Below are positions 29,018 through 52,962 of a stretch of 64,000 bases of DNA, piece after piece. Made by a program: the position numbers and the translations under genes. Origin of the DNA: a virus (Duplodnaviria; Caudoviricetes). Numbering within the stretch: the stretch's first letter is position 1; the number at the start of each line of letters is the position of its first letter. The notes under the pieces were generated by a model. That model worked only from the letters and a program-made list of their open reading frames with translations, was not told where the DNA came from and did no database searches. The stretch spans positions 128,001 to 192,000 of IMG/VR virus record IMGVR_UViG_3300017716_001697; one strand, written 5' to 3'.

Positions 29018-29040
29018 AAAGGGTCTTCGGGCCCTTTCTT
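29018..29040 (+). terminator. intrinsic terminator with UUCG loop
   Basis: AAAGGGTC-TTCG-GGCCCTTT followed by CTTT. Confidence 0.8.
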
Positions 29041-29068
29041 TATGGCCGCAAGATTTGCCACAAAAGAA

Positions 29069-29076
29069 GATAAATA
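29069..29076 (+). promoter_or_regulatory. T4-late-like promoter GATAAATA
   Basis: 5 nt before the ATG at 29082. Confidence 0.7.
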
Positions 29077-29081
29077 CTACT

Positions 29082-29669
29082 ATGAAAATATTAGAAATAC
29101 TGCTACCTAAAGAGATAAACGATAAAAGTATCTCTAAGAAACATGCCACCAAGATTGATGTACTACAGAGACGTATGAATGCTTATGTAGATAAGATTGC
29201 CGATCCAAGCACATCAACTAAAGGTAAAGAGTTTCTTAAGGCTAAACTAAAGACTGATTATGACGAATTGCGTGATGTGATTCAAACAGTGTCAGAAGAG
29301 AGTAACACAACTGTGAATGAAGCGGTACATAAACTGCCATTAACTGATGCAGATTTCGATTTAGTGAAGGGCCTAATGGAACGGCCAATTCCGGCAGTTA
29401 TCGCACCTATCTATATAAGTGAAATTATTGATGACGATGAATTCACTAGCTTATTGCAAGAATTTGAAGAGAAGGACCCGGGCGCAGATATGAGGCCACA
29501 TATTGTAGATTGGATGAAACGTGTCATGCCGGACCAGATGCATAGATTCTATGGTGGTCAGACAACAAAACAACGCGCCGGCCAAACTTCGGTAATTCAC
29601 GGATATGACCCACAGATGTATCACGGGTCAAACGAGGCAACTACTGGTAATGCATACGGTAGGATATAA
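29082..29669 (+). CDS. late hypothetical protein (MKILEILL N-terminus)
   Basis: Probable start 29082 immediately after the late promoter. Confidence 0.75.
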   Translation: MKILEILLPKEINDKSISKKHATKIDVLQRRMNAYVDKIADPSTSTKGKEFLKAKLKTDYDELRDVIQTVSEESNTTVNEAVHKLPLTDADFDLVKGLMERPIPAVIAPIYISEIIDDDEFTSLLQEFEEKDPGADMRPHIVDWMKRVMPDQMHRFYGGQTTKQRAGQTSVIHGYDPQMYHGSNEATTGNAYGRI

Positions 29670-30259
29670 TGCGTTTATTTGAACTTATCTGTGAGAGTAG
29701 GAGTGCAGATTTGTATCACGGTACAAATATGACAAAATTGACAAGAATGTTGCACGATAATGTCTTGGTTGCACAAACACCAATTCATAATGAGAACATT
29801 CCGAAAGAATTCAAAGGATTGACGCGTACTGTTTCTTTAACAAGAAACGCTGGCATGGCTACTAATTTCGCAAGAAGTAAAGCAGGTGGCGAGCAAGGTA
29901 TTGACTCGATCCCTGTTGTTATTGTGTTAGACCAAGATAAATTACACAGAAAATTAGGTAGGCGCATTAGGCCGTATAACGATCTAGCTTCACTTGCTCA
30001 TTCAACTGAACGAGCAGCAGGTGGCGGCGAATACGAAGAAGTTGTATTTGGTAGCATAAACGATATAAATTCGTATATAAAGAATATAGTTGTTCACATT
30101 AACCCAAATGTGAAGAAAGAAAATATAAAAGATTTTAACAAGGCTAAGATGGTATTCGATGATCCACGTACCGTTGTTGTAGATTTTCTTAATAAGAATC
30201 TCACAGGCAAACAGTTTATGCAACTGACAGCACCAAAACAAGATGTTCCACCTATATAA
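29669..30259 (+). CDS. putative ADP-ribosyltransferase-fold protein
   Basis: LYHGT strand 1, VSLTRN...A.NFA, distal EYEEVV. Confidence 0.5.
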   Translation: MRLFELICESRSADLYHGTNMTKLTRMLHDNVLVAQTPIHNENIPKEFKGLTRTVSLTRNAGMATNFARSKAGGEQGIDSIPVVIVLDQDKLHRKLGRRIRPYNDLASLAHSTERAAGGGEYEEVVFGSINDINSYIKNIVVHINPNVKKENIKDFNKAKMVFDDPRTVVVDFLNKNLTGKQFMQLTAPKQDVPPI

Positions 30260-30812
30260 ACTATCAGCAATTATAGCCACCACCTTATTAGTTGGGTGTG
30301 GCACATTAGGCACAGCACCAGTTGCCCCTGATGCAGAAATACTCAAGAGTGTACCGACGAGATCCATTGTGCTCGAAACTCAGGCATTGCTGCCGCATGC
30401 CGAAATGGCTATGTCAGCAATGCCTTCCGAACCAATTGTTGAAAGAGTTGAGGTCACCGGGAGTAGATTATCATCGGAGTCTGTCAAGTCATTCATACCT
30501 ACAACCAAGAAAGCAGTTAAAGTAATTAAGGCCGTGAAGGATGCATTAGCTGACGAGACAGCACCTACCGCACCACCTAGCACAGCACCTACCGCTACAC
30601 CAACCGCACCCGGTCCTACTCCGCGCCCCGCACAGACAGGTGCTAAACTACAGGTATTAGGTATAGATTTAGAGTTCTGGGTAGGTAACGATGACAACTG
30701 GAGTACAGTTTGGAAATTAATTGTCCTTGTGCTATTTGTATATGGTGGATTACGATTTATCAACCTAATAGTGACATACCTCGGTTCAATAACTTTAAGA
30801 ACACAATCATGA
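30243..30812 (+). CDS. lipoprotein with TonB-box-like segment, Pro-rich linker and C-terminal TM helix
   Basis: Lipobox LVG-C; [11 protein letters not shown]; [18 protein letters not shown]; hydrophobic C-terminus. Confidence 0.65.
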
Positions 30813-31132
30813 TAACAATAACAGAAACAGCAGCAACAAGAATAATCGGCATATTGGCAGAAGAAAATAGCCCTACATCGAGATTAAGAATGTTTGTGCA
30901 GGGTGGCGGGTGTAGTGGATTCTCTTATGGATTTACAATAGATAATGTTGTTAACGAAGACGACACTGCGATCAACGAAAGCAATGTTCCGATAGTAATT
31001 GATTCGATGAGCTATCAGTACCTTGTAGGATGTACCCTTGACTACGAAGAAACATTAATGAATTCCCAATTTGTTATTAAAAATCCCAACAGCAGTTCCA
31101 CATGTGGTTGTGGTTCGAGTTTCTCAGTATAA
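30809..31132 (+). CDS. erpA: A-type Fe-S carrier (ErpA/IscA, HesB family)
   Basis: [17 protein letters not shown] and CGCGSSF; start at 30809. Confidence 0.93.
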
Positions 31133-31136
31133 CTTT

Positions 31137-31165
31137 TTGACTTTCGTAAACGTGCCTGCTATACT
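31137..31165 (+). promoter_or_regulatory. sigma70-type promoter
   Basis: TTGACT-N17-TATACT with TG extension. Confidence 0.85.
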
Positions 31166-31207
31166 AGCAGCTAATGCTAAGTATATCACTATAGTTCAGG
31201 AGTTAAA

Positions 31208-31459
31208 ATGGCACTTTCAGACGCAAATCTAATCAGATTAAAACAGCTAGTAAATGACGGAGTACAGGTACTTCAGGAATGTGAAGACCTTAAGACAGGT
31301 CTTAGCGAAACAGTAAAAGCAATTGCTGAAGAATTAGAGGTAAAGCCAGCACAGCTTAACAAGGTTATTAAGATTGCACATAAAGCAAATCTTAATAATG
31401 TACGTGCGGATTTTGAAGAGGTAGAAGACCTGCTTACACAACTTGGCAGGGGCATTTAA
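31208..31459 (+). CDS. T4 DsbA/GapR-like dsDNA-binding protein
   Basis: Helical 83 aa; ..LKTGLSETVKAIAEELEVKPAQLNKVIKIAHK; sits directly before the polymerase. Confidence 0.65.
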   Translation: MALSDANLIRLKQLVNDGVQVLQECEDLKTGLSETVKAIAEELEVKPAQLNKVIKIAHKANLNNVRADFEEVEDLLTQLGRGI

Positions 31460-31460
31460 G

Positions 31461-34406
31461 TTGTACGTAGACGCCCTTTTTAAAAAGGGTGGTGAAGCAG
31501 AAGTAATTAGGTTGGTAGAACGTGTAAACGGCCAACGTATTTACTCCGAGTACCCACCTGATTATCATTTCTATCTGAGCGACCCAAAGGGTTCGCATAA
31601 ATCTATATACGGCGATGTAGTTAAGAAAATTGCACCACGCACATATGTAGAAAAACAAAAACTACTAAAAACACTATCTTACAATTCTAAGAAGTGGGAA
31701 AGCGATGTTGATCCCATTTTTAGATGTTTGGAACAGAACTATGCATCTGGCGACGCGCCAGCATTGCATGTAGCATTCTTTGACATTGAAACCAGCTTTG
31801 ATAAGGATTCCGGCTGGTCTGATCCTGCAGATGCTAAAAATTACATAACTTCTGTTTCTATTCACTTACAGTGGATAGACGAAATTATATGTCTTGCTAT
31901 CCCACCAGACACAATGACGTGGGACGAAGCACAAGTGATTGCAACAGAAGTAGGTAATGTAGTCTTATTCGATAAAGAAGAAGACATGTTAAATGCATTC
32001 ATGGATGTCATTGAAGACGCTGATGTGCTAAGTGGTTGGAACAGCGAAGCATACGATATCCCTTATATTGTTAATCGTATTAAACGTGTCTTGGGTAAGC
32101 AGGAGACTAGACGTCTTTGCCTGTGGGATCAACAACCAAAAGTCCGTGAGTTTGAGCGCGGTGGCAAGACACAGCCTACATACGATTTAATTGGTCGTGT
32201 ACACGTTGATTACATGCAATTATATAAGAAGTATAACTACGAAGAACGCCACAGTTATGCACTGAATGCAATTGCAGAAGCCGAATTAGGCGAGAGCAAG
32301 TTGCAGTACGAAGGTACATTAGACGAATTGTATAACGACGATTTTAAAACATTCTTAGAATATAACATTCAAGACACACGTTTGTTAGACAGATTAGACA
32401 AGAAGTTACAATTTATTGACTTAGCTAATTCTATCGCACATTCGAGCTGTGTGCTAATTCAGACGACAATGGGTGCAGTGGCAGTAACTGACCAGAATGT
32501 CTTAATGGAAGCACATCACCGTAATCAAGTGTGCCCTGATAAGAAACACGGCAAGGACAGTGAGGACAACCGTGCAGCGGGTGGCTGGGTGGCAACACCA
32601 CGACGCGGGTTACATAAGTGGCTAGGAAGCACCGACATGAAGTCGCTGTATCCATCTGTTATTAGAACGCTTAATATGAGTCCCGAAACAATTGTGGGAC
32701 AGATTAGGCTTGATCGTACTAATGCTGCAATTGCTGCACACGAAGCCAAAGGTGGCAAATACACATTTGCATCTTGGTGGAACGATAGATTCCATGTGTT
32801 AGAGATGGAAGATTTCTATAATGACGATATTGCTAACAAGCTAACGCTAGAAATGGAGAACGGTGATGTGTTTGAAGTCACTGGTGCCGAATTACGGGAG
32901 TTGATTTTTAACGGTGGTAGACCTTGGTGCATAAGTGCAAACGGCACCATCTTCAGAACTGACGTTGATGGTGTAATTCCATCTCTGCTTACTCGTTGGT
33001 ATAATGAGCGTAAGACCCTACAGGGTATTATGACTAATTACACCTTCATTGAAGATAATCCTAAAATCGAAGGCGTTAAAATACCTGAAGATTTGTTCAC
33101 TTTAGCAGACATCAGCGATGTAGAAGCTAAAGCTAACCCATACCTAGAATCAGAGTCATTTAAACCTAAGAAATTGGCGGAATTAGTGACTGACGGGCAC
33201 AAAAAACGTGTGGTTCAATATATGAATCAGCACAATTTGACAGTGAAGGATGGCAAAGCAATTAGCAGAGATCAACCACTGTTAAAGCGCATTATTGGAT
33301 TCTGGGATAAACGTCAGCTTGTTAAGAAAATTAATCTTAACTCTGCTTATGGCGCTTTACTGAATGCAGGAAGCAGGTTCTTTGATCAACGACTTGGTCA
33401 ATCAACTACGCTTACCGGCCGCACAATTACAAAACATATGGCCGCCAAGACCAACGAAATGATTGTAGGGACGTATGACCACTACGGTGATTCAATTATC
33501 TATGGTGATACAGACTCGTGTTATTTCTCAGCATACCCCATGTTGAAGAGTGAAATTGATCGTGGTGAGATTATATGGACTAAGGAAAGCATTGTTGATT
33601 TGTATAACGACCTGGCTAAATCAGTGTCAGCTACATTTCCAGACTTCTTATTGAAGGCGCTAAATGTACCTGTTAAACGCTCAACCGGTGTTATTGCAAG
33701 TTCGCGTGAAGTTGTTGCTGAGAGTGGTCTATACATTGTTAAGAAACGTTACGCCGTATTGATGTATGAAAAAGATGGTATTAGACTAGACGTAGGTGGT
33801 AAGCCAGGCAAAGTAAAAGCAATGGGCCTGGACTTAAAGCGTGCTGATACTCCTAAGTTTGTGCAGAAATTCTTGTCTGACATTTTGATGGATACGCTAA
33901 CTGACAAGGGCGAGAATTACGTTGTAGATAAGATTCGTATATTCAAGCAACAGTTTGAAGATATGAAACCCTGGCAACAAGGTACACCACGTGCAGTTAA
34001 CAAGCTATCTCATTATAGAGAAAAATTGGCAGATGCAGGTATTAAGAAATTGCAAGGTATTAAGGTTGGCAATTTACATGTACCGGGCCACGTGACAGCA
34101 AGTTTAGCATGGAATCATTTGAAATCATTAAATCACGATCAGCACGCAATGAGTATTGTTGACGGTCAGAAAGTTGTTATCTGTAAACTAAAAGAAACTA
34201 CAGAAAACAGACTGACCAGCATAGCCTATCCTGTTGATGAAGCACATTTGCCAGATTGGTTCTTGAGTTTGCCATTTGACAGTGAAGGAATGCAAGACGG
34301 TATTGTTGACAAGAAAGTTGAGAACTTAGTGGGTTGTTTGAATTGGGATCTTAGCAGAACTCAGAAAGAACATGCACACTTGGCAACACTGTTTGACTTC
34401 AGCTGA
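31461..34406 (+). CDS. family B DNA polymerase
   Basis: Exo I FFDIET; motif A DMKSLYPS, motif B KINLNSAYG, motif C YGDTDS; likely TTG start at 31461. Confidence 0.97.
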   Translation: MYVDALFKKGGEAEVIRLVERVNGQRIYSEYPPDYHFYLSDPKGSHKSIYGDVVKKIAPRTYVEKQKLLKTLSYNSKKWESDVDPIFRCLEQNYASGDAPALHVAFFDIETSFDKDSGWSDPADAKNYITSVSIHLQWIDEIICLAIPPDTMTWDEAQVIATEVGNVVLFDKEEDMLNAFMDVIEDADVLSGWNSEAYDIPYIVNRIKRVLGKQETRRLCLWDQQPKVREFERGGKTQPTYDLIGRVHVDYMQLYKKYNYEERHSYALNAIAEAELGESKLQYEGTLDELYNDDFKTFLEYNIQDTRLLDRLDKKLQFIDLANSIAHSSCVLIQTTMGAVAVTDQNVLMEAHHRNQVCPDKKHGKDSEDNRAAGGWVATPRRGLHKWLGSTDMKSLYPSVIRTLNMSPETIVGQIRLDRTNAAIAAHEAKGGKYTFASWWNDRFHVLEMEDFYNDDIANKLTLEMENGDVFEVTGAELRELIFNGGRPWCISANGTIFRTDVDGVIPSLLTRWYNERKTLQGIMTNYTFIEDNPKIEGVKIPEDLFTLADISDVEAKANPYLESESFKPKKLAELVTDGHKKRVVQYMNQHNLTVKDGKAISRDQPLLKRIIGFWDKRQLVKKINLNSAYGALLNAGSRFFDQRLGQSTTLTGRTITKHMAAKTNEMIVGTYDHYGDSIIYGDTDSCYFSAYPMLKSEIDRGEIIWTKESIVDLYNDLAKSVSATFPDFLLKALNVPVKRSTGVIASSREVVAESGLYIVKKRYAVLMYEKDGIRLDVGGKPGKVKAMGLDLKRADTPKFVQKFLSDILMDTLTDKGENYVVDKIRIFKQQFEDMKPWQQGTPRAVNKLSHYREKLADAGIKKLQGIKVGNLHVPGHVTASLAWNHLKSLNHDQHAMSIVDGQKVVICKLKETTENRLTSIAYPVDEAHLPDWFLSLPFDSEGMQDGIVDKKVENLVGCLNWDLSRTQKEHAHLATLFDFS

Positions 34407-34411
34407 AGTCC

Positions 34412-34440
34412 TTGACTTTCGTGGTATGCTAAGTTATACT
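34412..34440 (+). promoter_or_regulatory. sigma70-type promoter
   Basis: TTGACT-N17-TATACT. Confidence 0.8.
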
Positions 34441-34479
34441 GCATGTTATAAGAACCCCTGATAAAATAAAGGAACAAAA

Positions 34480-35211
34480 ATGTTATTAGACGCACTAAAA
34501 GATATTGTAAAACATACTCACACATTGGGTATTATTGAGATGGTTAAGGTAGTAGGATCTACAGCTGACCTAAAGATCGAAACCAAAGATGCAGATAATA
34601 CTGTTATTATCTACGGCAGCATGTATCAGCCAGTTGCAGGGCTCGAGTCCACTACAGGTTTTTCGCAATTAGCAGTGCTTAAAGGATTCATCGGTATGCA
34701 TGATGGTTCTGATGTAAGCCTTGAATCAGAGACACGCAATAATACGAGCACACTATCGTCTATCAAGTTCGACGATAAGGCAGAATTTATTTCGTCTTAT
34801 CGTCTTATGTCAGAGACAATGATTAACGAACAGGTTAAGGTGCCACCATTTAAGGGTGCAACATGGGACGTCACACTTACGCCAACAAAGGCAGCAGTTA
34901 CTCGTCTAAGCGAATGTTCGGGTATCATTGGTGGATTCGAAAAACGATTCACTGTGAGTGTAGACAAAGGTACATTGAAGTTTAGCGTAGGTACCGGCCC
35001 GACCAATACCACTGTGGTGCCGTTCGCAACAAACATTACAGGTACGTTAAAACATCAGTGGACATATCCATTGGCACAAGTGCTTAGTATCTTAAAGTTA
35101 ACTGAGACATCAACTGCTACAATGAGCTTTTCTGATATGGGCGCATTGAAGATTGATATCGACAGTGGTATCGGTAAGTACAGCTACATCTTACCAGCAG
35201 GCAAGTCCTAA
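34480..35211 (+). CDS. probable sliding clamp (gp45/PCNA-like)
   Basis: 243 aa, alternating beta/alpha pattern, ends YSYILPA, follows PolB; a clamp loader is in the window. Confidence 0.55.
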   Translation: MLLDALKDIVKHTHTLGIIEMVKVVGSTADLKIETKDADNTVIIYGSMYQPVAGLESTTGFSQLAVLKGFIGMHDGSDVSLESETRNNTSTLSSIKFDDKAEFISSYRLMSETMINEQVKVPPFKGATWDVTLTPTKAAVTRLSECSGIIGGFEKRFTVSVDKGTLKFSVGTGPTNTTVVPFATNITGTLKHQWTYPLAQVLSILKLTETSTATMSFSDMGALKIDIDSGIGKYSYILPAGKS

Positions 35212-35483
35212 TGAGCGGCGCACTCGAACCCGGGTGCCTTGCTGTCATCATACAGTCAGTGGATGGCCATTCTACAGGCATGGTTGTACAATGTGTACGT
35301 ATAGCCGGCGAACATTTAAAGTTTGGTACAGTCTGGCATGTTCGCTGCCGCGACAAACTGATTACAGAATATGGAGCAGTAGGCAACGAAGCTGACGTGC
35401 CGGCAATTTGGCTTAAGAAAATAGAGCCCGGCAGTGACCTACTTGTAACAATAAAAGACATACTAAAAACCGAGAAGATCTAA
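35211..35483 (+). CDS. hypothetical protein
   Basis: Coupled ORF. Confidence 0.65.
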   Translation: MSGALEPGCLAVIIQSVDGHSTGMVVQCVRIAGEHLKFGTVWHVRCRDKLITEYGAVGNEADVPAIWLKKIEPGSDLLVTIKDILKTEKI

Positions 35484-35490
35484 ATACAAT

Positions 35491-37086
35491 ATGACAAACA
35501 ACAGAACAAACTTTACGGAACGACACCTACACGGCGGTTGGGCAAAGTATCTTCCAGCAATTAGTGGATTTTACACAACACATTTAGGTAAGGATTTAGC
35601 CGATCCTGAATTCATCCCTGATTCTCGCGTACCTAAGGGATTTGAATTCGGTATGCAAGGACTGAACTTCTTTAAAGAAGACAATAATTATTTTAATTAC
35701 AAATTTGGTCTATTTTCAGCAGGTCATGCAGAAAGAAATCTTGCTAAGTGTAATGCCCGCGAACCGATGATTCACGATCGCGATCGTGAGAAGACGATCT
35801 TAATTGGTGACTCGGGTGGATTTCAAATTGCTACAGGTGTCATTAAAGTTGACTGGGCTACAGTGCAAACCCCGGCAGGTGATAAGTTGCGTGAAGAAAT
35901 TCTACGATATCTAGAGCATACATCGGATTGGTCGATGACATTAGACGTGCCGGCGTTCGCGGCAGAGCCACCGCTTAGTGCAAAAACTGGGTTAACAAAA
36001 TTCTCTGATTGTTTAGATGTTACTATGTATAATCTAGTATACTTCATGGAGAATCGTATCCCAGGTAAGACAAAGTTTTTGAATGTATTATCGGGTTCCG
36101 ACGCCGATAATTCCAAAGAGTGGTATGACTCGGTAAAAGTGTTTAGTCAACCACACATGGTCGAAGCGATGGGTTACACAAAAGACCGTACATTCGAAGG
36201 CTGGGCATTCGCTGGTATCAACATGAAACATATGCCGTCAGTGCTTAATCGTCTCTTAAACTTGCGCGATGACGGGCTATTAGCAGACAAAGATTGGATT
36301 CACTTCCTGGGCATTGGTCGACTAGATTGGGCATGTTATTTGACTTCTATTGAACGTGTATTAAGGAAACATTACAATCCCGATATCAATATTAGCTTCG
36401 ATGCAGCATCTCCCTTCGTTGCCGCTGGCGGCTATGCGTTATCGTATAACTATAACAAATTCAGCCCAGGCCAATTAACATATGCAATGGGCCGCGGAAT
36501 CGATGATAAGGGCGAGAAGGGTTCTACAGCAGCTATGCCGTTTCAGAGCCCCATTTATGATCGATTAACAGTTGGCGATATGTGTGTAATGGGGCCTAAT
36601 GATGCAAATAAACACGGCAAGATAGGAAACACAAGTTGGGATACAACGTCGTATGCATTGGTAATGGCACACAATGTTTACAATCATATTCAAGCTATAC
36701 AAGAAGTTAATAGACTTGCTGACGTCGAGTATGCCACAACTGCTAACCAAGATTTTAGACAATGGTTTGCACATCGTGGCAAGAAGATGAAGGCGCAGGA
36801 TACCAACAAAAGTGACTTTATCCCTAACGAAATAATCTTTATGAATAATTTCATTGAAGAACTGTTTGATCCTTCCACAAAAGATCCATACGGTATGATT
36901 GTTACTTATGCTGAATTATTAGAAAAGGTCAGTTTCACTAAGTTGGTAACTAAAAATAAATTAGACAGTAAACTATTTGAACTTGATGTATTTAACGGAA
37001 ATATCAATATACCCGATATTGACCAATTAGCAGTTTCAGATGATACACACTTAGTTGATAAATTAGCAGAAGACGATGAAACATGA
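35491..37086 (+). CDS. TGT-fold guanine transglycosylase (DpdA-like)
   Basis: GDSGGFQ, MTLDVP, FLNVLSG, GWAFAG, HFLG, SFDAASP (both catalytic Asp positions), AHN; no CxCxxC zinc motif. Confidence 0.8.
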   Translation: MTNNRTNFTERHLHGGWAKYLPAISGFYTTHLGKDLADPEFIPDSRVPKGFEFGMQGLNFFKEDNNYFNYKFGLFSAGHAERNLAKCNAREPMIHDRDREKTILIGDSGGFQIATGVIKVDWATVQTPAGDKLREEILRYLEHTSDWSMTLDVPAFAAEPPLSAKTGLTKFSDCLDVTMYNLVYFMENRIPGKTKFLNVLSGSDADNSKEWYDSVKVFSQPHMVEAMGYTKDRTFEGWAFAGINMKHMPSVLNRLLNLRDDGLLADKDWIHFLGIGRLDWACYLTSIERVLRKHYNPDINISFDAASPFVAAGGYALSYNYNKFSPGQLTYAMGRGIDDKGEKGSTAAMPFQSPIYDRLTVGDMCVMGPNDANKHGKIGNTSWDTTSYALVMAHNVYNHIQAIQEVNRLADVEYATTANQDFRQWFAHRGKKMKAQDTNKSDFIPNEIIFMNNFIEELFDPSTKDPYGMIVTYAELLEKVSFTKLVTKNKLDSKLFELDVFNGNINIPDIDQLAVSDDTHLVDKLAEDDET

Positions 37087-37291
37087 TTTACAATCCAGGA
37101 TAGACTCTGTTGAGAATATGATGCGTATTCAACAGAGTTGCTTGGAGCGTGGATATATGCACGGCATGATGAATGGGCTTATATGTGCCCATGCTGCATT
37201 TACTAATACAGATCCGGAGTTTGTTAAAATGCCGCACCGGAAGGTACAGATAAGGCACAAAGCAAGGAAATTACCTTCACGTAATGATTAA
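37076..37291 (+). CDS. hypothetical protein
   Basis: Overlapping ORF. Confidence 0.6.
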   Translation: MKHDLQSRIDSVENMMRIQQSCLERGYMHGMMNGLICAHAAFTNTDPEFVKMPHRKVQIRHKARKLPSRND

Positions 37292-37342
37292 ATTCTTATT
37301 AGGTGTCTTGTTTTCCACATTAATATAAGCTATAGTCACTAA

Positions 37343-38169: not shown

Positions 38170-38170
38170 T

Positions 38171-40746: not shown

Positions 40747-40753
40747 GAGCAGC

Positions 40754-44364: not shown

Positions 44365-44387
44365 TCAAACACAGTTAGAGGCCAAAA

Positions 44388-44845: not shown

Positions 44846-45003
44846 TTCTAACATACGAAGAATGGATTAAGAATCACACAATAACGGTGAACCAAGAATT
44901 GTGTGATGATATGAAAAGATTACTAGGTATTGATGCCATGGCTGAAGCCGAAAGAGCACTGCGTCACGAATACCAGCTATACTTGGAACAACAAAATGTT
45001 TAA
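44842..45003 (+). CDS. hypothetical protein
   Basis: GGAG RBS before ATG 44842. Confidence 0.6.
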   Translation: MILTYEEWIKNHTITVNQELCDDMKRLLGIDAMAEAERALRHEYQLYLEQQNV

Positions 45004-45193
45004 ACCTGATCCAAAATTTGGCTGGCATATATATTGGATTGCCCCATTGTTAATAATCGGTGGCATAATCGGCAAGCCATTACACTATCTTGAAAAACGT
45101 AGGCAACGTAAGCATATGGAAAAGATTATGCAGGATCCGGAGATTGTTGAATTGGCTAGACTCGCAGGATTAGTTGAACGTAAACGAAAATAA
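44996..45193 (+). CDS. small membrane protein
   Basis: One hydrophobic segment (IYWIAPLLIIGGIIG). Confidence 0.6.
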   Translation: MFKPDPKFGWHIYWIAPLLIIGGIIGKPLHYLEKRRQRKHMEKIMQDPEIVELARLAGLVERKRK

Positions 45194-45202
45194 TGCTATA
45201 AT
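45174..45202 (+). promoter_or_regulatory. sigma70-type promoter, probable leaderless transcript
   Basis: TTGAAC-N17-TATAAT, 5 nt before ATG 45208. Confidence 0.65.
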
Positions 45203-45207
45203 ATAAT

Positions 45208-45423
45208 ATGAATGAACGAATTGAAGAACTCGCCAGACATGCATTTGTGGCAGGTCTAGATACAGACCCAATTCTGTATTACGAAATAGAAAAATTTGCC
45301 GAATTACTCATTAAAGAATGCGCTTTTCAAGCATGTAATGATTTCGGCAGCGGCGGACAGTTCTATGAGGGTGCTAAGTTTGCAGCAACCCAGATTAAAG
45401 AACACTTCGGAATTAAGGAATAA
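45208..45423 (+). CDS. small protein, MNERI...KFAELxIxEC...HFGIKE family
   Basis: Direct motif match to 46860, 60732 and 61186. Confidence 0.75.
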   Translation: MNERIEELARHAFVAGLDTDPILYYEIEKFAELLIKECAFQACNDFGSGGQFYEGAKFAATQIKEHFGIKE

Positions 45424-45576
45424 CAATGAACAATATTAATCAGCCTTGGCGCCTGTTGCCAAATCATATTAAACAGTGGGTTAGAGATAATGGATATGTT
45501 ATCCACGAATCCAGCAGTGGCGCAACGTATTACCCAGAGTGGCGCTGTGAATATATAAAATCAGTGGAGAATTAAA

Positions 45577-46467
45577 TTGTTTGGAACTAACGAAATTATC
45601 GGTAAGAAGTATTTTAAAGACGCACCAAAGGACAGCTTGTTTGTTACAAGCATGTTCTTCACGCTCCAGGGCGAAGGCCCCTATGCCGGTATGCCTGCAT
45701 TGTTCATCCGCCTAGCAAAGTGTAATCTGACTTGTTCATTCTGTGACACCTTCTTTGATGACGGCGAGTGGATGACGTTTGACCAAATTGACAATAAAAT
45801 GTTCGACACCATCCGTGAGTATTGGGTCAATCAGGGCAAAGAGGTACCTGAATGGGCTATTCCTAGATTCGACCGGCCCCAACCTAGGTTCAGCTTTCCG
45901 AATATTGTGCTGGTGATGACGGGCGGCGAACCGTTGTTGCAAGAAAACATCACGTCATTCATGCATGACCAACTAAAGACCTTCAAGGCAGTCCAAGTTG
46001 AAAGCAACGGTATCCCTGACACAGAAGTGCCATATGGTGTTACTCTCGTCTGTAGCCCAAAGTGTCTGGAAAAAGATGGCAAGGCAGTAAAGTATCTGGC
46101 GCCATCTAAGACTATCCTTCAACGTGCGGACTGTCTGAAATTTGTGATGACCGCAGAAGAAGGCAATCCATACCACACCGTACCTGATTGGGCACTTGAT
46201 TGGAAGTTTAATACTGGTCGAGAAATCTATTGCTCTCCGATGAATGTGTACAATGACTTTCCACAACAGATTAAATTGTTACGTGCTGAAAAGGGCGTAA
46301 TCACAATGGCAGAGCGCAGCACAGTTGATGAGGTTATCTCGTGGTGGGAAAAGGATTTGCTTAACATGCCAAAGAATGAAGATAATCATAAGTACGTCGG
46401 TCAATATTGTATGCAACACGGTCTGCGCATGCAGATGCAAATGCACCTTTTTGCGAGTTTAGCATGA
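45577..46467 (+). CDS. queE: 7-carboxy-7-deazaguanine synthase (radical SAM)
   Basis: FFTLQGEG...G.PA.FIRLAKCNLTCSFCDT, TGGEP, ESNG, CSPK, QMHLF; TTG start after GGAG. Confidence 0.92.
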   Translation: MFGTNEIIGKKYFKDAPKDSLFVTSMFFTLQGEGPYAGMPALFIRLAKCNLTCSFCDTFFDDGEWMTFDQIDNKMFDTIREYWVNQGKEVPEWAIPRFDRPQPRFSFPNIVLVMTGGEPLLQENITSFMHDQLKTFKAVQVESNGIPDTEVPYGVTLVCSPKCLEKDGKAVKYLAPSKTILQRADCLKFVMTAEEGNPYHTVPDWALDWKFNTGREIYCSPMNVYNDFPQQIKLLRAEKGVITMAERSTVDEVISWWEKDLLNMPKNEDNHKYVGQYCMQHGLRMQMQMHLFASLA

Positions 46468-46703
46468 AACTTAATTATACATACGGCCCCGGTACACTAA
46501 CAATTACTAAAATTTTTGAGCCGGGTGAAAAATATATCAGTGCTTATCTATGGGATCGTAAAGATGGCCGAGCAACCAAAGAGTTGGTCGAAAGTATGCT
46601 GCCAGGGTGTAAATTTGTAGGTGTACAACACGGCAGAGTGGCTAGCCCTATAACACTTGCACCTACGTCATGGACTAAGGTATTAGTTGAACGGACGGAG
46701 TAG
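46464..46703 (+). CDS. hypothetical protein
   Basis: ATGA overlap. Confidence 0.55.
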   Translation: MKLNYTYGPGTLTITKIFEPGEKYISAYLWDRKDGRATKELVESMLPGCKFVGVQHGRVASPITLAPTSWTKVLVERTE

Positions 46704-46859
46704 AAGTATGAAATCAAGAATCTACGGACACTTTGGGTCTTATAGCGCAGCATACGAAGCAGTTGGTGAGAAGTTTAAGGAAAGTAGAAACTTTTCTATT
46801 CAGCGCAGCACTGACTATCGTATGTATCCTTATGTGTTAATCTATTACGGAAATTTTGT

Positions 46860-47051
46860 ATGAACGAACGACTTGCAGAACTTATTGAAAAGGCAGATAG
46901 TAAATTTGTGCGTAGAGGCGTACATCTAGTCGAGGTCGTTGATCAGGAAAAATTTGCCGAGACACTCATTCACGAATGTTTGCAGCATCTAACCAACATC
47001 GGTCAGGATTATGCCCGCGAACAATTAGAGAAACACTTTGGAATAAAATAA
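46860..47051 (+). CDS. small protein, MNERI family
   Basis: MNERLAELI...EKFAETLIHEC...HFGIK. Confidence 0.75.
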   Translation: MNERLAELIEKADSKFVRRGVHLVEVVDQEKFAETLIHECLQHLTNIGQDYAREQLEKHFGIK

Positions 47052-47242
47052 TGGAACCTGATGCTAAAGACGAAAAGATATTTGAACTACAAGAAGAAAA
47101 CAGATATCTCCGTGGTCAGATAACTTATCTACAAGAACAGCTATCGAGCGCAGAAGACGAGATGGATAGAAAGGTTTTACGATTAGAAGATAAGATTGCA
47201 GACCTAGAAGAACGCCTAGGAGACGCATTATATGGAAGCTAA
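47051..47242 (+). CDS. small coiled-coil protein
   Basis: Heptad pattern; TAATG coupling. Confidence 0.65.
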   Translation: MEPDAKDEKIFELQEENRYLRGQITYLQEQLSSAEDEMDRKVLRLEDKIADLEERLGDALYGS

Positions 47243-47247
47243 GGTTA

Positions 47248-47463
47248 ATGTTAAAATACGATCTAGTTGAATGGATAAATGTAATACAACCAGAAATATT
47301 GCGACAGGGTTACACCGATATTCCTAATTGCAAATGCGCTAAAATTGCAGGTAACTTCGAACGTGAATTCCACGTAGAGTTCTTATCGCAAGAAGATGAA
47401 GTTTGTTTTGTCTTATTGTTTGGTCGTGGAGTAACAATGGTAAGAACAGATGAAGTTCTATAA
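47248..47463 (+). CDS. small protein, FxxxxDAxxFxLxW family
   Basis: VEFLSQEDEVCFVLLFG. Confidence 0.65.
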   Translation: MLKYDLVEWINVIQPEILRQGYTDIPNCKCAKIAGNFEREFHVEFLSQEDEVCFVLLFGRGVTMVRTDEVL

Positions 47464-47665
47464 TAAAAATCCTAAGTTACGCGATACGTGGGTTAAGGTA
47501 AAATTCCGATTGCCCTGGCCATTCGTACTTAAAGATGACATGAAGTCGTGGGCTCAACGCCATCCCAGCACAGGCAGATTCTACGGTAAATATAATAGTT
47601 GGCAATTCGAAAACGAGGCTGATGCATTGCTTTTCAAACTTAGATGGGGTTATAATACAGCATGA
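47450..47665 (+). CDS. small protein, FxxxxDAxxFxLxW family
   Basis: WQFENEADALLFKLRWG. Confidence 0.75.
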   Translation: MKFYNKNPKLRDTWVKVKFRLPWPFVLKDDMKSWAQRHPSTGRFYGKYNSWQFENEADALLFKLRWGYNTA

Positions 47666-47877
47666 GCTATCCAGATGAATTTATACACCGAGTTTACAAA
47701 ACTCAGGCTCGAGTTTTATTTAGTATACCAAAACGTCTCGATGAGATTGTTAAATCAGAACCGGATTCTTACATAGACGTTATATACGAAAATCTGAGAC
47801 CAATAATTGTGATTGTCTTTCCTACACAAGAAGACTGTCTAGCTTTTACACTTAAAAATGGAAACAAATATGTTTAA
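47662..47877 (+). CDS. small protein, FxxxxDAxxFxLxW family
   Basis: IVFPTQEDCLAFTLKNG. Confidence 0.7.
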   Translation: MSYPDEFIHRVYKTQARVLFSIPKRLDEIVKSEPDSYIDVIYENLRPIIVIVFPTQEDCLAFTLKNGNKYV

Positions 47878-48499
47878 AATGAAATATGGTTGGCTACCTG
47901 CACACTGGGGTCTTAAGGGCAAGACACGGGAAGTTGCTAAGGCTGAATATGAGTTAGCGGGATACGATCTTGAATATCGTCTTCTAGAAATTAAGAAAGA
48001 TGAACTTTCTGAAAATGATTATGCACAGAAGCAAATCGATCTTTCGTTTAAACATGGTAAGATTACCAAGGCTGAGCAGATGCGTATGCTTGTTGCCCGC
48101 ATTACCGACGAAGGACAGAAGGCATTAGCATCTTTAGAACTTGATTACAAAGAAGGTTTCATAACAGACACCGAATATCAGAAACAAGCTGCTACACTCA
48201 AAGGCGAGCCGTGGGTAACAGTAATTAGTATGGACTTCGGTGGTCGTCAATCTCTAGAAGGTAGTTTTGAATTAGACTGGAATGATTTCTTTGTTGCAAA
48301 CTTAATTAAGGATGGCTACCAGGGCCCAACACCAGACAACATTGTGAACCAGTGGTTCATGACTGTATGCAAGAATGTCGCGCTAGAGGAATTCGACGGC
48401 ACGGGCAATTTCAACGCTGACGCGGATGCCAATTTCGAAACTATGAAACGTTGGAACTCTACGGAATCCTTAGACGGTGTTAGAAAAGGTTATAAATAA
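47858..48499 (+). CDS. phage hypothetical protein
   Basis: 213-aa ORF (start may be 47870). Confidence 0.75.
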   Translation: METNMFKMKYGWLPAHWGLKGKTREVAKAEYELAGYDLEYRLLEIKKDELSENDYAQKQIDLSFKHGKITKAEQMRMLVARITDEGQKALASLELDYKEGFITDTEYQKQAATLKGEPWVTVISMDFGGRQSLEGSFELDWNDFFVANLIKDGYQGPTPDNIVNQWFMTVCKNVALEEFDGTGNFNADADANFETMKRWNSTESLDGVRKGYK

Positions 48500-48759
48500 T
48501 GTGTCATATTCAAACATATTACACTATGAAACGTCGTCGCGGTGGCGAAACCCTAACACCGCGCAATAAGTTGCTATGGCATAGAATGCATTCCTGCCCC
48601 GGCAATGTACACCATAAAGTTCCGCGTGCAAAAATCATTTTCAATCGCCGAGTCAAATATGGTCATGCGTGTTACGTCATGTACTGGCGTTCACACCACG
48701 GGGAGTATCTAGCAATGAAATCCTTTACCGCTAGACCTAGAGTTAAAACTGTAGTATAA
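48499..48759 (+). CDS. basic hypothetical protein
   Basis: TAATG coupling; Arg/His-rich. Confidence 0.5.
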   Translation: MCHIQTYYTMKRRRGGETLTPRNKLLWHRMHSCPGNVHHKVPRAKIIFNRRVKYGHACYVMYWRSHHGEYLAMKSFTARPRVKTVV

Positions 48760-48771
48760 TTACAACATAAG

Positions 48772-49818
48772 ATGACAAAACCACATACATTTATTCACAC
48801 TGACGGACAGAATTTATTTCATCGTCAAATTAATATGACTAATCCAGCGTTAGGATTAGACAGTGCTATCGGAATGGCACTTCATATGATTCTGTATAGC
48901 ATGAAAAAGGAGTGGAATAGATTCGGTGGAACCCACTGTGTATTCTATATGGAAGGGTATTCATGGCGTAAGCATGTGTATCCACCATACAAGGCAAATC
49001 GTGTCGTAGCTGCGCAATCACTTACAGAACAGGAACAGGAAAATAAAGAAATCCTGCAAGGTGCATTCGATGATCTGGTATCCTTTATTAACGAAGGTAC
49101 CAATATTACTGTTCTAAGGAATCCTAAGGCCGAAGCTGATGATATGATTGCAATTTTCATCGAAGCTCACCCCGATGATAATCATGTCCTGATTAGTTCA
49201 GACTCTGATTTCTATCAACTGTTGCGCTTTCCTAATCTTACAATCTATGATCCGGTGAAAGATATCAGAATTACTCGCGACGGAATCCATGACGATCACG
49301 GTAAACGTCTTGCGTTTGCTGTTGATTCCACAGCTAAGATTAAGGTAGGTAAACCAGATCCCAATTTCACTGTTGATCCGGATTGGTACAATTATGCACT
49401 ATTTCTAAAATGTGTGCGTGGTGATAAGACTGATAATATCTTTAGCGCATATCCTGGTGTTCGTGAAAAAGGTACTAAATCATCAGTGGGCATTCGTGAA
49501 TGCTACAACGACACAAACAAGGGCTATGCATGGAACAACTTCATGCGTCAGAAATGGGTAGACGAGAATTCAATTGAACAGGAAGTGAAAAATTGTTACG
49601 AACGTAACAAGCTTCTTATTGATCTTTCCCAAATTCCCACAGACGTGAAAGAAGAGTGTCTAACTGTCATTGCAGAAACAACTGATCGAAAAAATGTTCC
49701 GGCACTCACAATAGGTACTGGTTTTATGAAATTCTGCGGACGTTGGGCACTAAAGAAGATCGGCGACAATTCAGCAGATTTCATGCCAATGTTGAAATCA
49801 AAATACAGTAACGAATAA
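48772..49818 (+). CDS. 5'-3' exonuclease / T4 RNase H-like flap nuclease
   Basis: DGQNLFHR, EADDMIA, SSDSDFYQL, GDKTDNI acidic motifs. Confidence 0.92.
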   Translation: MTKPHTFIHTDGQNLFHRQINMTNPALGLDSAIGMALHMILYSMKKEWNRFGGTHCVFYMEGYSWRKHVYPPYKANRVVAAQSLTEQEQENKEILQGAFDDLVSFINEGTNITVLRNPKAEADDMIAIFIEAHPDDNHVLISSDSDFYQLLRFPNLTIYDPVKDIRITRDGIHDDHGKRLAFAVDSTAKIKVGKPDPNFTVDPDWYNYALFLKCVRGDKTDNIFSAYPGVREKGTKSSVGIRECYNDTNKGYAWNNFMRQKWVDENSIEQEVKNCYERNKLLIDLSQIPTDVKEECLTVIAETTDRKNVPALTIGTGFMKFCGRWALKKIGDNSADFMPMLKSKYSNE

Positions 49819-49819
49819 A

Positions 49820-50065
49820 ATGACAACACTAAAATGGATATGCTGCTGGTTATTCTTTTATTCTGGTGACATTGCATCACGAATAATGGTGCGGCGCGCC
49901 GATGATGAGAAATGGTGCGACTTCTGGTATCAAATATATAATGAATGTATGTTGTTATCCAGCAACATACAGGATGATGCCGGTCGAGATCCAAACAAAT
50001 GTGCTGATGTCACGGGCTGGCCGTGGTCGCTGATTAACGAAAAAAAGGAAAATGAATGTCCGTGA
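49820..50065 (+). CDS. hypothetical protein
   Basis: Coupled ORF. Confidence 0.6.
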   Translation: MTTLKWICCWLFFYSGDIASRIMVRRADDEKWCDFWYQIYNECMLLSSNIQDDAGRDPNKCADVTGWPWSLINEKKENECP

Positions 50066-50553
50066 AATTAAAACCTATTACCGAAACATCGTGGCTTGTT
50101 ATCGGGGACACTGACGAAATCCGTATCGGATTGTTAACTGAAATTAGAAATCAGTATGTGTTAATGGTAGCTGGCGCAAAACAACAATTCCTTGACAGGA
50201 AGGCAGTAAACAAATACTTCGAAGAAGATGTATTTGGGAATATTGCAGAACCGGTTGCTCAGACAGATACTAAGAAAGATTATTTTATTAACGGTTATCC
50301 AGTTGACTTTGATAACCCTAGTGAAGTGCTAATCAAAGGTAATACGTTACCACTGTTTAGTAAGAAATCAACCAGCGATGTATATTACAGTGCCGGGTAT
50401 TATTGCCTAAACTTCCCTAAGAATTGGATGCCTGCATATTGCCCTAAGTTGTCTACTCTAGGTACATATGAATATGCAGGGCCATTTAAAACTGAAATTG
50501 AAATGCGCTCAAGTCTTACTCGCCTACGGAAAGATAAGAATTTAAAGAAATGA
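50056..50553 (+). CDS. phage hypothetical protein
   Basis: AAGGA RBS; 165 aa. Confidence 0.75.
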   Translation: MSVKLKPITETSWLVIGDTDEIRIGLLTEIRNQYVLMVAGAKQQFLDRKAVNKYFEEDVFGNIAEPVAQTDTKKDYFINGYPVDFDNPSEVLIKGNTLPLFSKKSTSDVYYSAGYYCLNFPKNWMPAYCPKLSTLGTYEYAGPFKTEIEMRSSLTRLRKDKNLKK

Positions 50554-50753
50554 GTGAAATTGCTAAACTACGACAACGCTTATCAAATGTAAATAAGCGA
50601 GTCACTGAATATAGGATGACAGTCGATGAAGCTAAAGCTTTGTTGAAGGAAATTGATACTGTCACTGAAGAACAAAAACAAGAACCACCTCAAGTGGTTG
50701 TCAATGAACCCGCTATTATAACTAGAATAATGGATGGCGGCGCTTTTGAATAA
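50550..50753 (+). CDS. hypothetical protein
   Basis: ATGA overlap. Confidence 0.65.
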   Translation: MSEIAKLRQRLSNVNKRVTEYRMTVDEAKALLKEIDTVTEEQKQEPPQVVVNEPAIITRIMDGGAFE

Positions 50754-50775
50754 GCCCTTCGGGGCTTATTTTTTG
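50749..50775. terminator. terminator between convergent genes, UUCG loop
   Basis: AATAAGCCC-TTCG-GGGCTTATT followed by T5. Confidence 0.85.
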
Positions 50776-51017
50776 GCCGGTAAAACGCTTATAGAAAGTT
50801 TAGGTCTACTCTTGTGCAAGCTGTTTGCTGCAATCAATGCTGACTTTTCTGTAGCAAATGGTTTAATCTTACCACCAGATTTCCATGGATTACCGTTAAT
50901 GGTAATGTAGTAGTTAAGCGGTATCTCTGCAACAGTTGGTTTAACTTCAGCACGATTATCTTGCTGGTCTAGCCATAGCTGATTTACCCTACCTTCGGTT
51001 ATTTCTGTTAATTTCAT
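50766..51017 (-). CDS. late small protein (MKLTEITE N-terminus)
   Basis: Minus-strand GATAAATA lies 5 nt upstream of the ATG. Confidence 0.75.
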   Translation of the reverse strand: MKLTEITEGRVNQLWLDQQDNRAEVKPTVAEIPLNYYITINGNPWKSGGKIKPFATEKSALIAANSLHKSRPKLSISVLPAKK

Positions 51018-51022
51018 AGTAG

Positions 51023-51062
51023 TATTTATCTCAATTCAATAAACTGGTATATTTGATAAATA
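51023..51062. promoter_or_regulatory. back-to-back GATAAATA late-type promoters
   Basis: Minus-strand copy at 51023-51030, plus-strand copy at 51055-51062. Confidence 0.7.
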
Positions 51063-51089
51063 TATGTATACTTATTGGAGATACAGTAA

Positions 51090-51380
51090 ATGGCGCGTCC
51101 AAAACCCACAATAATCCTTGAACACGTTGATTCAAAGACATACAAGGCTGAACAAATTCTCGAAGCTGAATCAGTCTATGCTGTATTCTACCAGGGTAAA
51201 CCTATCAACCTACGTACACTGAGTCATCTTATTTCTTACCCTGGCCCAAAGTACAAGAAGGTCAGTTTTTCTAATTCCGGGCACGCATTTAATTTGGCAG
51301 ATCGCCTAAATAAACAATTCAAAACTGATGAATTCAAAGTATTTAGGCTTGATGTAGGTACACTGTGTATTGAGAATTAA
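51090..51380 (+). CDS. phage hypothetical protein
   Basis: Late promoter and GGAG RBS. Confidence 0.8.
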   Translation: MARPKPTIILEHVDSKTYKAEQILEAESVYAVFYQGKPINLRTLSHLISYPGPKYKKVSFSNSGHAFNLADRLNKQFKTDEFKVFRLDVGTLCIEN

Positions 51381-52573
51381 TTATCAACTAGTATTAATTG
51401 ATAGCTGCATGTTATGATGGTGTTGTTTGCATCTGCGAAGCAGCGTACATCGATATCCCCGCGTGCCGGAATAGCTAACGGCACGTTAAAATCATTCCTA
51501 TAATGACCGTTTACTACTTCGGCAACATGCACACCTACAAATGGTCCATTATACTGGCGTACATACATTCTTATCTGTGTACCTATATTACCTGACCCAC
51601 TGCGGAAACTAGTAGCATCGCCAAATAATATATAACCAGTCTTATTTCTAGGTATGGTATATTGACTTAATTTAGTCATTCCCATATTAGGTGCAATGTG
51701 TGCAACAACTGTTCCGCCTGCCGACGATATACGAAATAATATATCACCAATGTTGGCAACAGTGGTTACTGAACTAGTGATAACTCCCGAATATATTCTT
51801 ATCCAAGATTTAGTAGTTACTACGGTGCTAGTACCATTTAGTATGATTGTTTCTGATTGCATGTCGTAATTGGCATCTAAACCCTGTATGACAATATTTT
51901 GACTAATATCAGCGACATTATTACTTGCTATATATAACGGTGAAGCCACAGTCCATGCACCAAATGGATATAGTCCCCCTTCTACCCATATGCTTGTTTC
52001 TACATCCTGGTTTACATCGGGATTATAACCGTTTCGTGTAACGATTGCCTGTCCAGTTAGTATACCACGTGCTAGATTCATTTCATAGTCACTGTCTGCA
52101 ATTATTAAATCTGTTGTAGAACTTGCTACTGTCCACGGTCCGGATTGAGTTACTGCGAGTGTACCATTTACTGTTTGGGTGGCAGGAAAATTACTTACTG
52201 ATACCGCTCCACTAATGGGCTGTGTTGCTTGCCAGAATGTACCAGTGACTGCTTGGGTAGCAGGGAAATTGCTTATCGATAGTGCCCCATTTACTGTCTG
52301 TGTAGCAGGGAAATTGCTTATCGATACTGATCCACCGATAGGCATATATGGGACAGCCAATATTCCACTTGTACCTATCTCACTAACATGAGTATGTACA
52401 GGATTAGTAGGTGTGCTTTCAACTTGAACTACTGTGCCTACATTGACACTGCCCGTAATGGTAATGGCATCACTACCCAGATTGACACGTAATTCTGGCT
52501 CCCCTGTTGTTACATTAAATTGTAATGCACTATGTATATTATCGGGGCGGTTAAATGTAGGCGATGTTGCCAT
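51377..52573 (-). CDS. probable virion structural protein with SISNFPATQ repeats
   Basis: Three SxSNFPATQ(T/A)V repeats; 25-nt direct repeat at 52257-52281 and 52302-52326. Confidence 0.7.
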   Translation of the reverse strand: MATSPTFNRPDNIHSALQFNVTTGEPELRVNLGSDAITITGSVNVGTVVQVESTPTNPVHTHVSEIGTSGILAVPYMPIGGSVSISNFPATQTVNGALSISNFPATQAVTGTFWQATQPISGAVSVSNFPATQTVNGTLAVTQSGPWTVASSTTDLIIADSDYEMNLARGILTGQAIVTRNGYNPDVNQDVETSIWVEGGLYPFGAWTVASPLYIASNNVADISQNIVIQGLDANYDMQSETIILNGTSTVVTTKSWIRIYSGVITSSVTTVANIGDILFRISSAGGTVVAHIAPNMGMTKLSQYTIPRNKTGYILFGDATSFRSGSGNIGTQIRMYVRQYNGPFVGVHVAEVVNGHYRNDFNVPLAIPARGDIDVRCFADANNTIITCSYQLILVDN

Positions 52574-52582
52574 GCTATTCTC

Positions 52583-52936
52583 CTAGAGTGTAAAACATTC
52601 CGGATGGGCCTTCCCGAAGCGTCTCATAATCACGCCAGCTATCGCATTGGCTTGATTTTCTGTCTCGGATCCGTCTGATCCATCCATTTCTTGATTTTCT
52701 AATCTTTGTTTCCAGTGCACAAGTTCGTGGGCAAGTGTTCTGTAGATATCCATTGGGTGCCTGCCTGCAGTTACTACCTGCAAGGAATCGCCTGCAAATT
52801 CACCAAAAGATGATCCGCCACCAACTGGCTCGCTAACAAACTCAATGGACGGTAATTCGTTGATGTCTAACTCGTCCTTGCACAGTTCAAGGAATCGTGA
52901 TGTCATATTTTCTAATAGTACTTCTTTTAATTTCAT
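52583..52936 (-). CDS. HExxH zinc metallopeptidase-like late protein
   Basis: RTLAHELVHWKQ...E.QANA; MKLKEVLLE N-terminus; GATAAATA 5 nt upstream (52942-52949). Confidence 0.75.
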   Translation of the reverse strand: MKLKEVLLENMTSRFLELCKDELDINELPSIEFVSEPVGGGSSFGEFAGDSLQVVTAGRHPMDIYRTLAHELVHWKQRLENQEMDGSDGSETENQANAIAGVIMRRFGKAHPECFTL

Positions 52937-52962
52937 ACACGTATTTATCCTAAATTTGATTA

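Follow-up and report, generated by a model that had tools for sequence, protein, structure and literature searches.

A portable N-terminal tag on unrelated late proteins of a giant freshwater phage resembles the capsid-targeting sequence of T4

Why should a set of unrelated late genes in a large phage genome begin with almost the same eight to ten residues? The question is raised by four genes (P0001 to P0004; Table 1) in a stretch of 64,000 nucleotides, referred to here as the window, which corresponds to bases 128,001-192,000 of the 364,576-bp virus record IMGVR_UViG_3300017716_001697 (Caudoviricetes). This record has direct terminal repeats and was recovered from a freshwater metagenome. 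An earlier note on this DNA had pointed to four N-termini, at positions 29082, 29669, 51017 (minus strand), and 52936 (minus strand) of the window, all of which were located there, and had attributed them to a set of enzymes that are packaged in the phage head and ejected into the host. The phage itself is uncultured. The analysis indicates that the shared N-terminus acts as a peptide, that proteins with such a tag are present in the particles of a cultured relative, phage PA5oct, and that the tag is probably a variant of the capsid-targeting sequence (CTS) and propeptide of the T4 type.

A simple gene call predicted 692 genes, which cover 91% of the genome. The tag pattern M[KR][IL]x[ED][ILVF] forms the start of 11 of these 692 predicted proteins, in comparison with the 0.93 +/- 0.96 expected from column shuffles of the N-termini, of which the highest among 2000 gave 5, and it follows an internal methionine at only 1 of 2494 positions. 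Eight of the 11 tagged proteins, in comparison with 30 of 678 others, have a second site, [LIVMF]xE, the glutamate of which is residue 8 or 9 (p = 6e-9). The consensus of the tag, which spans 8-10 residues, is Met, Lys/Arg, Ile/Leu, any residue, Glu/Asp, two hydrophobic residues, any residue, and Glu. A looser set includes proteins that start with MRAKEILYED, MILQELFETT, and MKILKILDDS, and the tagged set as a whole comprises approximately 11-15 late proteins in the genome, the bodies of which are unrelated.

The genes of this set share a promoter-like motif, GATAAATA, which occurs 60 + 16 times (76) in the 364,576-bp genome, in comparison with 19 + 6 times (25) for the reversed control, and precedes genes of the head, neck, tail, and fibers, in the manner of a late promoter. 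The genome-wide scan for tags behind this motif that the earlier note had proposed bore out the association, given that GATAAATA is found within 40 nt of 7 of the 11 tagged genes and 38 of the 681 other genes (Fisher p = 8e-7), and an eighth tagged gene is translationally coupled. This enrichment, together with the association of the motif with the head and tail genes, would fit a late expression of the tagged genes.

The distance between GATAAATA and the start codon is bimodal throughout the genome, at 4-6 nt in nine genes and 14-31 nt in 36 genes. The longer distance leaves space for a Shine-Dalgarno (SD) site and the shorter does not. The spacing of 5 nt that had been noted for three of the four genes, with the fourth coupled, is exact, and the ATG at 29669 overlaps the preceding stop codon. 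In the tag-matching P0004 orthologs of the related contigs, the spacer is 5 nt in 15 of 21 cases and 4 nt in 2 of 21, with a sequence that is variable and a length that is fixed, and the metagenome gene calls of this family include many mis-called starts of the type MINSxMK…, which derive from the same arrangement of GATAAATA and spacer. Late transcripts of T4 begin approximately 6 nt after TATAAATA, so that, with a spacer of 5 nt, the A of the ATG would be the first base transcribed. In the 5-nt class, then, transcription probably starts at or beside the A of the ATG, which would render these late mRNAs leaderless. No description was found, in the literature searched, of a leaderless mRNA linked to a TATAAATA promoter or of a fixed 5-nt spacing between promoter and ATG, and leaderless late mRNAs, if this is what they are, would be a novelty in late transcription of the T4 type.

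The tag might in principle reflect either the nucleotides or the peptide. Its second position is occupied by Lys (AAA/AAG) or Arg (CGT/CGA/CGG), and several different codons are used at the Leu, Ile, Val, Phe, and acidic positions. The same peptide also opens genes that have SD leaders (17-22 nt) or are translationally coupled. The P0003 orthologs of related contigs retain the tag behind SD-type leaders of 17-19 nt instead of the 5-nt spacer, and the four P0004 orthologs among 25 related contigs that lack GATAAATA plus 5 nt start with MKIKDFLLE, MKIHDVILE, MRLREAVLE, and MKIKEAILE. The variety of the codons and the persistence of the tag in other leader contexts indicate, therefore, that selection acts on the peptide. 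A signal at the nucleotide level was also considered, and is ruled out by this codon variation and by the retention of the tag outside the 5-nt promoter context.

What follows the tag varies completely. An all-against-all BLAST of the bodies of the tagged proteins returned no match below E 0.01, and the folds or families of the cargo differ, including an ADP-ribosyltransferase (ART) fold, a zincin-like protein, a KTSC domain, a DUF5661 domain, and unassigned proteins. The Pfam domain begins after the tag in two tagged proteins other than the original four, at residue 13 in the KTSC protein and residue 18 in the DUF5661 protein, and the tag is retained in the homologs of P0001, P0002, and P0004. 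Judged from these sequences, the tag acts at the level of the peptide and is portable over unrelated cargo.

Are proteins of this kind found in virions? PA5oct, a cultured Pseudomonas jumbo phage that is only distantly related (its homologs have 26-38% identity), carries head genes of the T4 type. Of its 461 coding regions, 93 have been detected in virions by electrospray ionization tandem mass spectrometry (ESI-MS/MS; Lood et al. 2020, PMC7318152). The whole PA5oct record was searched for the back-translated tag, and each match was checked against the annotation. Nine annotated coding sequences start with the tag, seven of which (EST35_0150, 0175, 0205, 0230, 0238, 0380, and 0381) carry the annotation "structural protein, ESI-MS/MS". 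The comparison of 7/9 with 93/461 is significant (hypergeometric p = 2.8e-4), with an enrichment over the local background that is modest, given that the tagged genes sit in late or structural blocks in which approximately half of the viewed neighbors are also positive by mass spectrometry (MS). Proteins with this tag are, then, physically present in the PA5oct particles. The PA5oct tags include (V)KIKDILVES, MKINDIITEG, MKILEFNLTE, and MRLDEIQSK, and nearly all the tags have an [L/I/M]-x-E ending at residues 8-11.

Two members of the set in the freshwater phage are homologous to proteins of these virions, that is, a looser member (genome 96263-96580), whose homolog is EST35_0238, which starts with (V)KIKDILVES, and a tagged protein (genome 48276-49040) related to EST35_0380. 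The short spacing is also found in PA5oct, in the P0004-like gene EST35_0271 (MK797984.1 179881-180267, minus strand), in which GATAAATA is followed by 5 nt and an ATG that opens MKIKEIILEN. The annotated start of this gene is an ATG within GATAAATA, and the true start is likely five codons downstream; its homolog in the freshwater phage is a tagged gene with the same 5-nt spacing. The report on PA5oct (PMC7318152) makes no mention of the tag, and neither a signal for capsid targeting nor late genes without a leader are described in it.

The known system that most invites comparison is that of T4, in which IPIII needs no more than its first 10 residues to be packaged, with residues 4 and 7 involved in targeting and residues 8 and 10 in processing, while Asp at position 10 blocks processing and leaves targeting unaffected, and gp21 cleaves after L/I-X-E (PMC9026906). 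In the T4 record, both ipII and ipIII open with the exact coding sequence for MKTYQEFIAE, which is thus found twice, and gp22 and gp24 start with MLKEQLIAE and MAKINELLRE, respectively. When aligned on the central Glu, the Ile/Leu of the tag corresponds to position 4 of T4, its hydrophobic residues to positions 7 and 8, and its final Glu to position 10, which makes it the T4 pattern minus one residue, with a register shift of -1 in relation to MKTYQEFIAE. The gp21-type L/I-x-E ending is found in P0002, P0003, and P0004, whereas P0001 has only the targeting half.

The tag thus resembles the CTS of IPII, IPIII, IPI, and Alt in being an N-terminal sequence of approximately 10 residues on unrelated late proteins. 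One of the cargos here has an ADP-ribosyltransferase fold, which recalls Alt, an ADP-ribosyltransferase that T4 packages behind a short propeptide (PMC9026906). It differs from the T4 sequence in being one residue shorter and in its presence on 11-15 genes, rather than approximately four. Many of the tagged genes also have GATAAATA at 5 nt from the ATG, whereas ipII and ipIII of T4 have SD leaders, and some of the cargos are acidic, while the P0001 family has Pro in the place of the final Glu. The propeptides of the phiKZ and SPN3US phages have A/S/G-x-E as their cleavage motif. They are mostly more than 100 residues long, in contrast with the 8-10 residues and the T4-type L/I-x-E of the tag described here. 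A protease related to gp21 cuts these ejection proteins behind a Glu of the propeptide, which likely functions in head targeting (PMC5694885). The literature searched for a capsid-targeting sequence in jumbo phages yielded only phiKZ/SPN3US-type work and T4 reviews.

The freshwater phage encodes the machinery that a sequence of this type would need. Its family B DNA polymerase has approximately 40% identity with those of Rak2-like, Atu_ph07-like, and other jumbo phages, and window positions 29000-33000, when compared with the phage collection by megablast, gave no match at the nucleotide level. The head module includes a portal, an acidic core-like protein, a protease, a helical scaffold-like protein, and a major capsid protein of the Gp23 family, with the scaffold-like and acidic core-like proteins located between the portal and capsid genes. 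The protease has 34% identity with T4 gp21 and retains the GEL(D/N)HP and GVSSRG motifs. The K-L-x-E core of the tag is also found at the N-termini of the protease (KLYEFLS, near its start), the capsid protein, and the scaffold-like protein (MAKKLDELLSE). The capsid protein opens with MATKLFES, followed by ALLE (residue 19) and HLSE (residue 42), immediately before the conserved core. One common N-terminal theme thus unites the head-core proteins with the tagged proteins, as in T4.

The cargo of the four genes is only partly enzyme-like. The ART-like domain that had been proposed is well founded in fold and motifs, and is that of P0002. In the AlphaFold model of this protein (predicted local distance difference test, pLDDT, 76), residues 1-12 score below 50 and are unpacked, and the first strand of the core begins at residue 14. 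The best Foldseek match is DarT (E 2e-4 to 7e-4, TM score 0.43-0.49, identity 16-17%, with all 196 residues covered), followed by Tpt1/KptA and the A chains of the cholera and pertussis toxins, and nearly all of the top 50 matches, including pierisin, belong to the ART superfamily. Among 19 sequences, including 18 metagenomic homologs, G18, T19, S56, E121, and E123 do not vary, and H17 hardly does, which fits the NAD-binding (H/R-G-T), Ser, and catalytic E-x-E motifs of the superfamily. The tag is present in all 18 homologs, and its E9 is invariant, as is R11. On the evidence of the model, P0002 is an ART-fold protein closest to DarT, with a predicted activity of this type. It shares with DarT the fold and the positions of G-T, Ser, and E-x-E, with a nearly invariant His, and differs from it in having an N-terminal tag and no DarG-like macrodomain partner.

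The HExxH protease domain that had been claimed, which is that of P0004, has fared less evenly. More than 365 homologs were found, many on contigs of 360-390 kb, and an alignment of 36 sequences shows no variation at H70, E71, H74, or E93, which upholds the motif. The model has a pLDDT of 87 (mean of 61 over the first 10 residues), and its fold matches are all zincins (abylysin, IrrE/PprI, and SPRTN/Wss1) and weak, the best having an E of 0.02, with TM scores of 0.52-0.54, and the Pfam matches, to MPTase-PolyVal, Tox-MPTase3, and M78, all fall below the curated cut-off, which leaves both the fold and the hidden Markov model support weak. P0004 is, then, a putative small HExxH zincin-like protein of the gluzincin type. 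A homolog in the T4-like cyanophage B23 starts with MNYKQFLRES, and there is a TATAAATA motif approximately 50 nt upstream of the gene that precedes and overlaps it.

The P0001 family includes at least 195 proteins. The best 120 of 195 homologs hardly depart from M[RK]I[LVI]EILLPK at the N-terminus, and E5, L7, L8, and P9 are invariant in an alignment of 25 sequences. Position 9, where the second Glu would be expected, is thus an invariant Pro, and the second Glu site is absent, which places P0001 outside the processing half of the model. From its sequence, P0001 may be targeted and yet not processed at the tag. Its N-terminal (approximately 72 aa) and C-terminal (approximately 115 aa) modules are conserved, with a hypervariable insert of 0-200 aa between them, and the family looks like a carrier with a swappable middle cargo. 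One homolog has Pfam matches to sigma-70 region 4. P0003 is small and basic, and neither it nor P0001 has a Pfam or PHROGs family or a usable lead in the ESM Atlas.

The reading that best accounts for these observations, and which is probably correct, is that the tag is a variant of the T4-type capsid-targeting sequence and propeptide. The tagged proteins would be produced late, and the tag, as an amphipathic helix, would join the gp22-type scaffolding core during the assembly of the prohead. The gp21-type protease would then remove the tag after Leu/Ile-x-Glu, leaving the mature cargo in the head with the DNA, and, following ejection, the DarT-like ADP-ribosyltransferase and the small zincin may act in the newly infected cell, as Alt and IPI* do in T4. 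We infer the targeting, cleavage, packaging, and ejection of the tagged proteins from this comparison. The earlier note is sustained on a tag that acts as a peptide on unrelated cargo and follows the T4 pattern, except for the Pro of P0001 in the position of the second Glu. The T4-type protease, scaffold, and capsid protein are all encoded, and, as for the set of enzymes, an enzyme-like domain is found in only two of the four proteins.

A more ambitious version, offered tentatively and on balance doubtful, is that, in T4-related jumbo phages, the 5-nt leaderless GATAAATA cassette and the tag together convert diverse acquired genes into injected cargo, so that the injected proteins could be read from the sequence. 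The role of the DarT-like enzyme, which would modify nucleic acid or protein of the host at infection, and the use of the same address by the scaffold, protease, and capsid protein form part of this version, and are equally tentative.

A number of observations weigh against the T4-type interpretation. In PA5oct, where the enrichment is modest over the surrounding blocks, two tagged genes, EST35_0075 and EST35_0382 (64 and 99 aa), were not detected in virions, nor was the P0004-like EST35_0271, and none of P0001 to P0004 has an MS-detected homolog. Several of the tagged proteins are acidic, in comparison with the basic internal proteins of T4, and the invariant Pro 9 of P0001 is a misfit with the processing half. 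The tag of P0004 opens a long first helix (residues 3-23), shows about the same degree of conservation as the residues behind it, and could be part of the fold.

The alternative that survives best, albeit an unlikely one, is that the tag directs assembly or structural accessories into the prohead core, where they are degraded or retained, and not ejected. The same K-L-x-E core on the scaffold-like protein, protease, and capsid protein is what such a function would predict, as is the position of EST35_0150, directly after the portal gene of PA5oct, where T4 has its core protein gp67, and P0001 and P0003 have no enzyme-like domain. The ART and zincin-like folds would, however, be unexpected in scaffold parts, and the tagged genes are scattered and variable among relatives, unlike the core head genes.

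Much less probable is a constraint on translation initiation in leaderless or short-leader late mRNAs, which would shape the N-terminus and leave the peptide itself without a function. Five of the nine genes with a promoter-to-ATG distance of 4-6 nt are tagged, in line with such a constraint, and the other four start with A/T-rich codons (MI…). Such a constraint would nevertheless not account for the encoding of Lys/Arg by unrelated codons, the synonymous and conservative changes that leave the acidic and hydrophobic positions intact, the persistence of the tag behind SD leaders of 17-22 nt or in coupled genes, or the fixed residue position of the second Glu site.

It is also very improbable that the tag is a signal for another partner, such as the AAA+ protease encoded at 14934-17150, a chaperone, or a localization factor. 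A strong homolog of such a protease is present in the phage, and a ClpP gene lies beside one of the tagged genes of PA5oct, but seven of the nine PA5oct proteins with the tag are sufficiently stable to have been detected in purified virions, and the motif matches the gp21 site. We know of no degron that matches the tag motif. Finally, the tag is a short motif, of a type that commonly forms helices, but a generic amphipathic helix that arose by chance or composition is scarcely credible in the face of 11 starts against approximately one expected, the single case in 2494 internal methionines, the late-promoter association (p = 8e-7), and the conservation of the tag across more than 100 homologs.

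The organization of the locus departs in part from the description of the genes as mostly stand-alone. P0001, the translationally coupled P0002, and a lipoprotein-like gene form one three-gene operon (29082-30812), and P0004 and a 398-aa gene form a two-gene unit (52936-51377), which leaves P0003 (51017-50766) as the sole stand-alone gene of the four. The 398-aa gene is an insertion specific to this phage, and in 25 related contigs it is missing beside the P0004 orthologs, which adjoin the conserved 96-aa gene directly. The possibility that P0004 serves the 398-aa gene was considered, and is ruled out by this absence. Neither the lipoprotein-like protein nor the 96-aa protein has a Pfam or PHROGs family. 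At window 51023-51062, two copies of GATAAATA are arranged back to back, one on each strand and 24 bp apart, with the plus-strand copy at 51055-51062, and this pair serves the tagged 83-aa gene (minus) and the 96-aa gene (plus).

Elsewhere in the genome, the 738-aa protease homolog is located downstream of a GATAAATA at 12510. The tagged DUF5661 protein (MRLDEIDLMG; genome 56063-56290) follows a tRNA 3'-end-like sequence (…TTCGATTCTC…CCGCCA), and has no GATAAATA nearby. There are also seven paralogous small proteins (63-89 aa) that start with MN(E/K/T/N)R(I/L)xEL, have a central KFAELIIKEC-like motif, and mostly end in HFGI(K/E). Their genes lack a late promoter and belong to early-looking arrays, at window 45208-45423, 46860-47051, and 61186-61431, with four more at genome 208476-248423.

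Table 1. Coordinates of the tagged genes, their neighbors, and related features (window positions, except where the genome is indicated).
Feature	Position	Strand	Details
AAA+ ATP-dependent protease homolog, 738 aa	14934-17150		phrog_4871, E 3e-243
Borderline tagged gene, 96 aa	28203-28493	+	MKILKILDDS; GATAAATA at 28176; 19-nt SD-type leader; no Glu site
GATAAATA	29069-29076	+	5 nt before ATG 29082
P0001, 195 aa	29082-29669	+	MKILEILLPKE, behind GATAAATA
P0002, 196 aa	29669-30259	+	MRLFELICE-S; TAATG overlap with P0001 stop
Lipoprotein-like gene, 189 aa, untagged	30243-30812	+	Third in operon; N-terminus …TLLVGC
P0003, 83 aa, isoelectric point 9.9	50766-51017	-	MKLTEITE-G; 5 nt behind GATAAATA
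GATAAATA	51023-51030	-	5 nt before ATG 51017
Late gene, 96 aa, untagged	51090-51380	+	Approximately 80% identity across relatives; between P0004 and P0003
398-aa gene, untagged	51377-52573	-	Downstream of P0004; phrog_8198 C-terminus; three tandem S-x-S-N-F-P-A-T-Q-x-V-x-G repeats
P0004, 117 aa	52583-52936	-	MKLKEVLLE-N; 5 nt behind GATAAATA
GATAAATA	52942-52949	-	5 nt before ATG 52936
Peptidase_S77 (gp21-type) protease	Genome 339389-340030		PF03420, E 7e-26

The principle of the capsid-targeting sequence has been known since 1996, and no description was found, in the literature searched, of this form of the consensus, of so many cargos, of the coupling to a promoter that is likely leaderless, or of the link with phages of the PA5oct and Rak2 types. 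If the tag is T4-like, the cargo of the giant T4-related phages would be predictable from the sequence, even in uncultured genomes. Such cargo would be the first to act against the defenses and the transcription of the host, and the candidates here would be a DarT-like ADP-ribosyltransferase and a mini-zincin.

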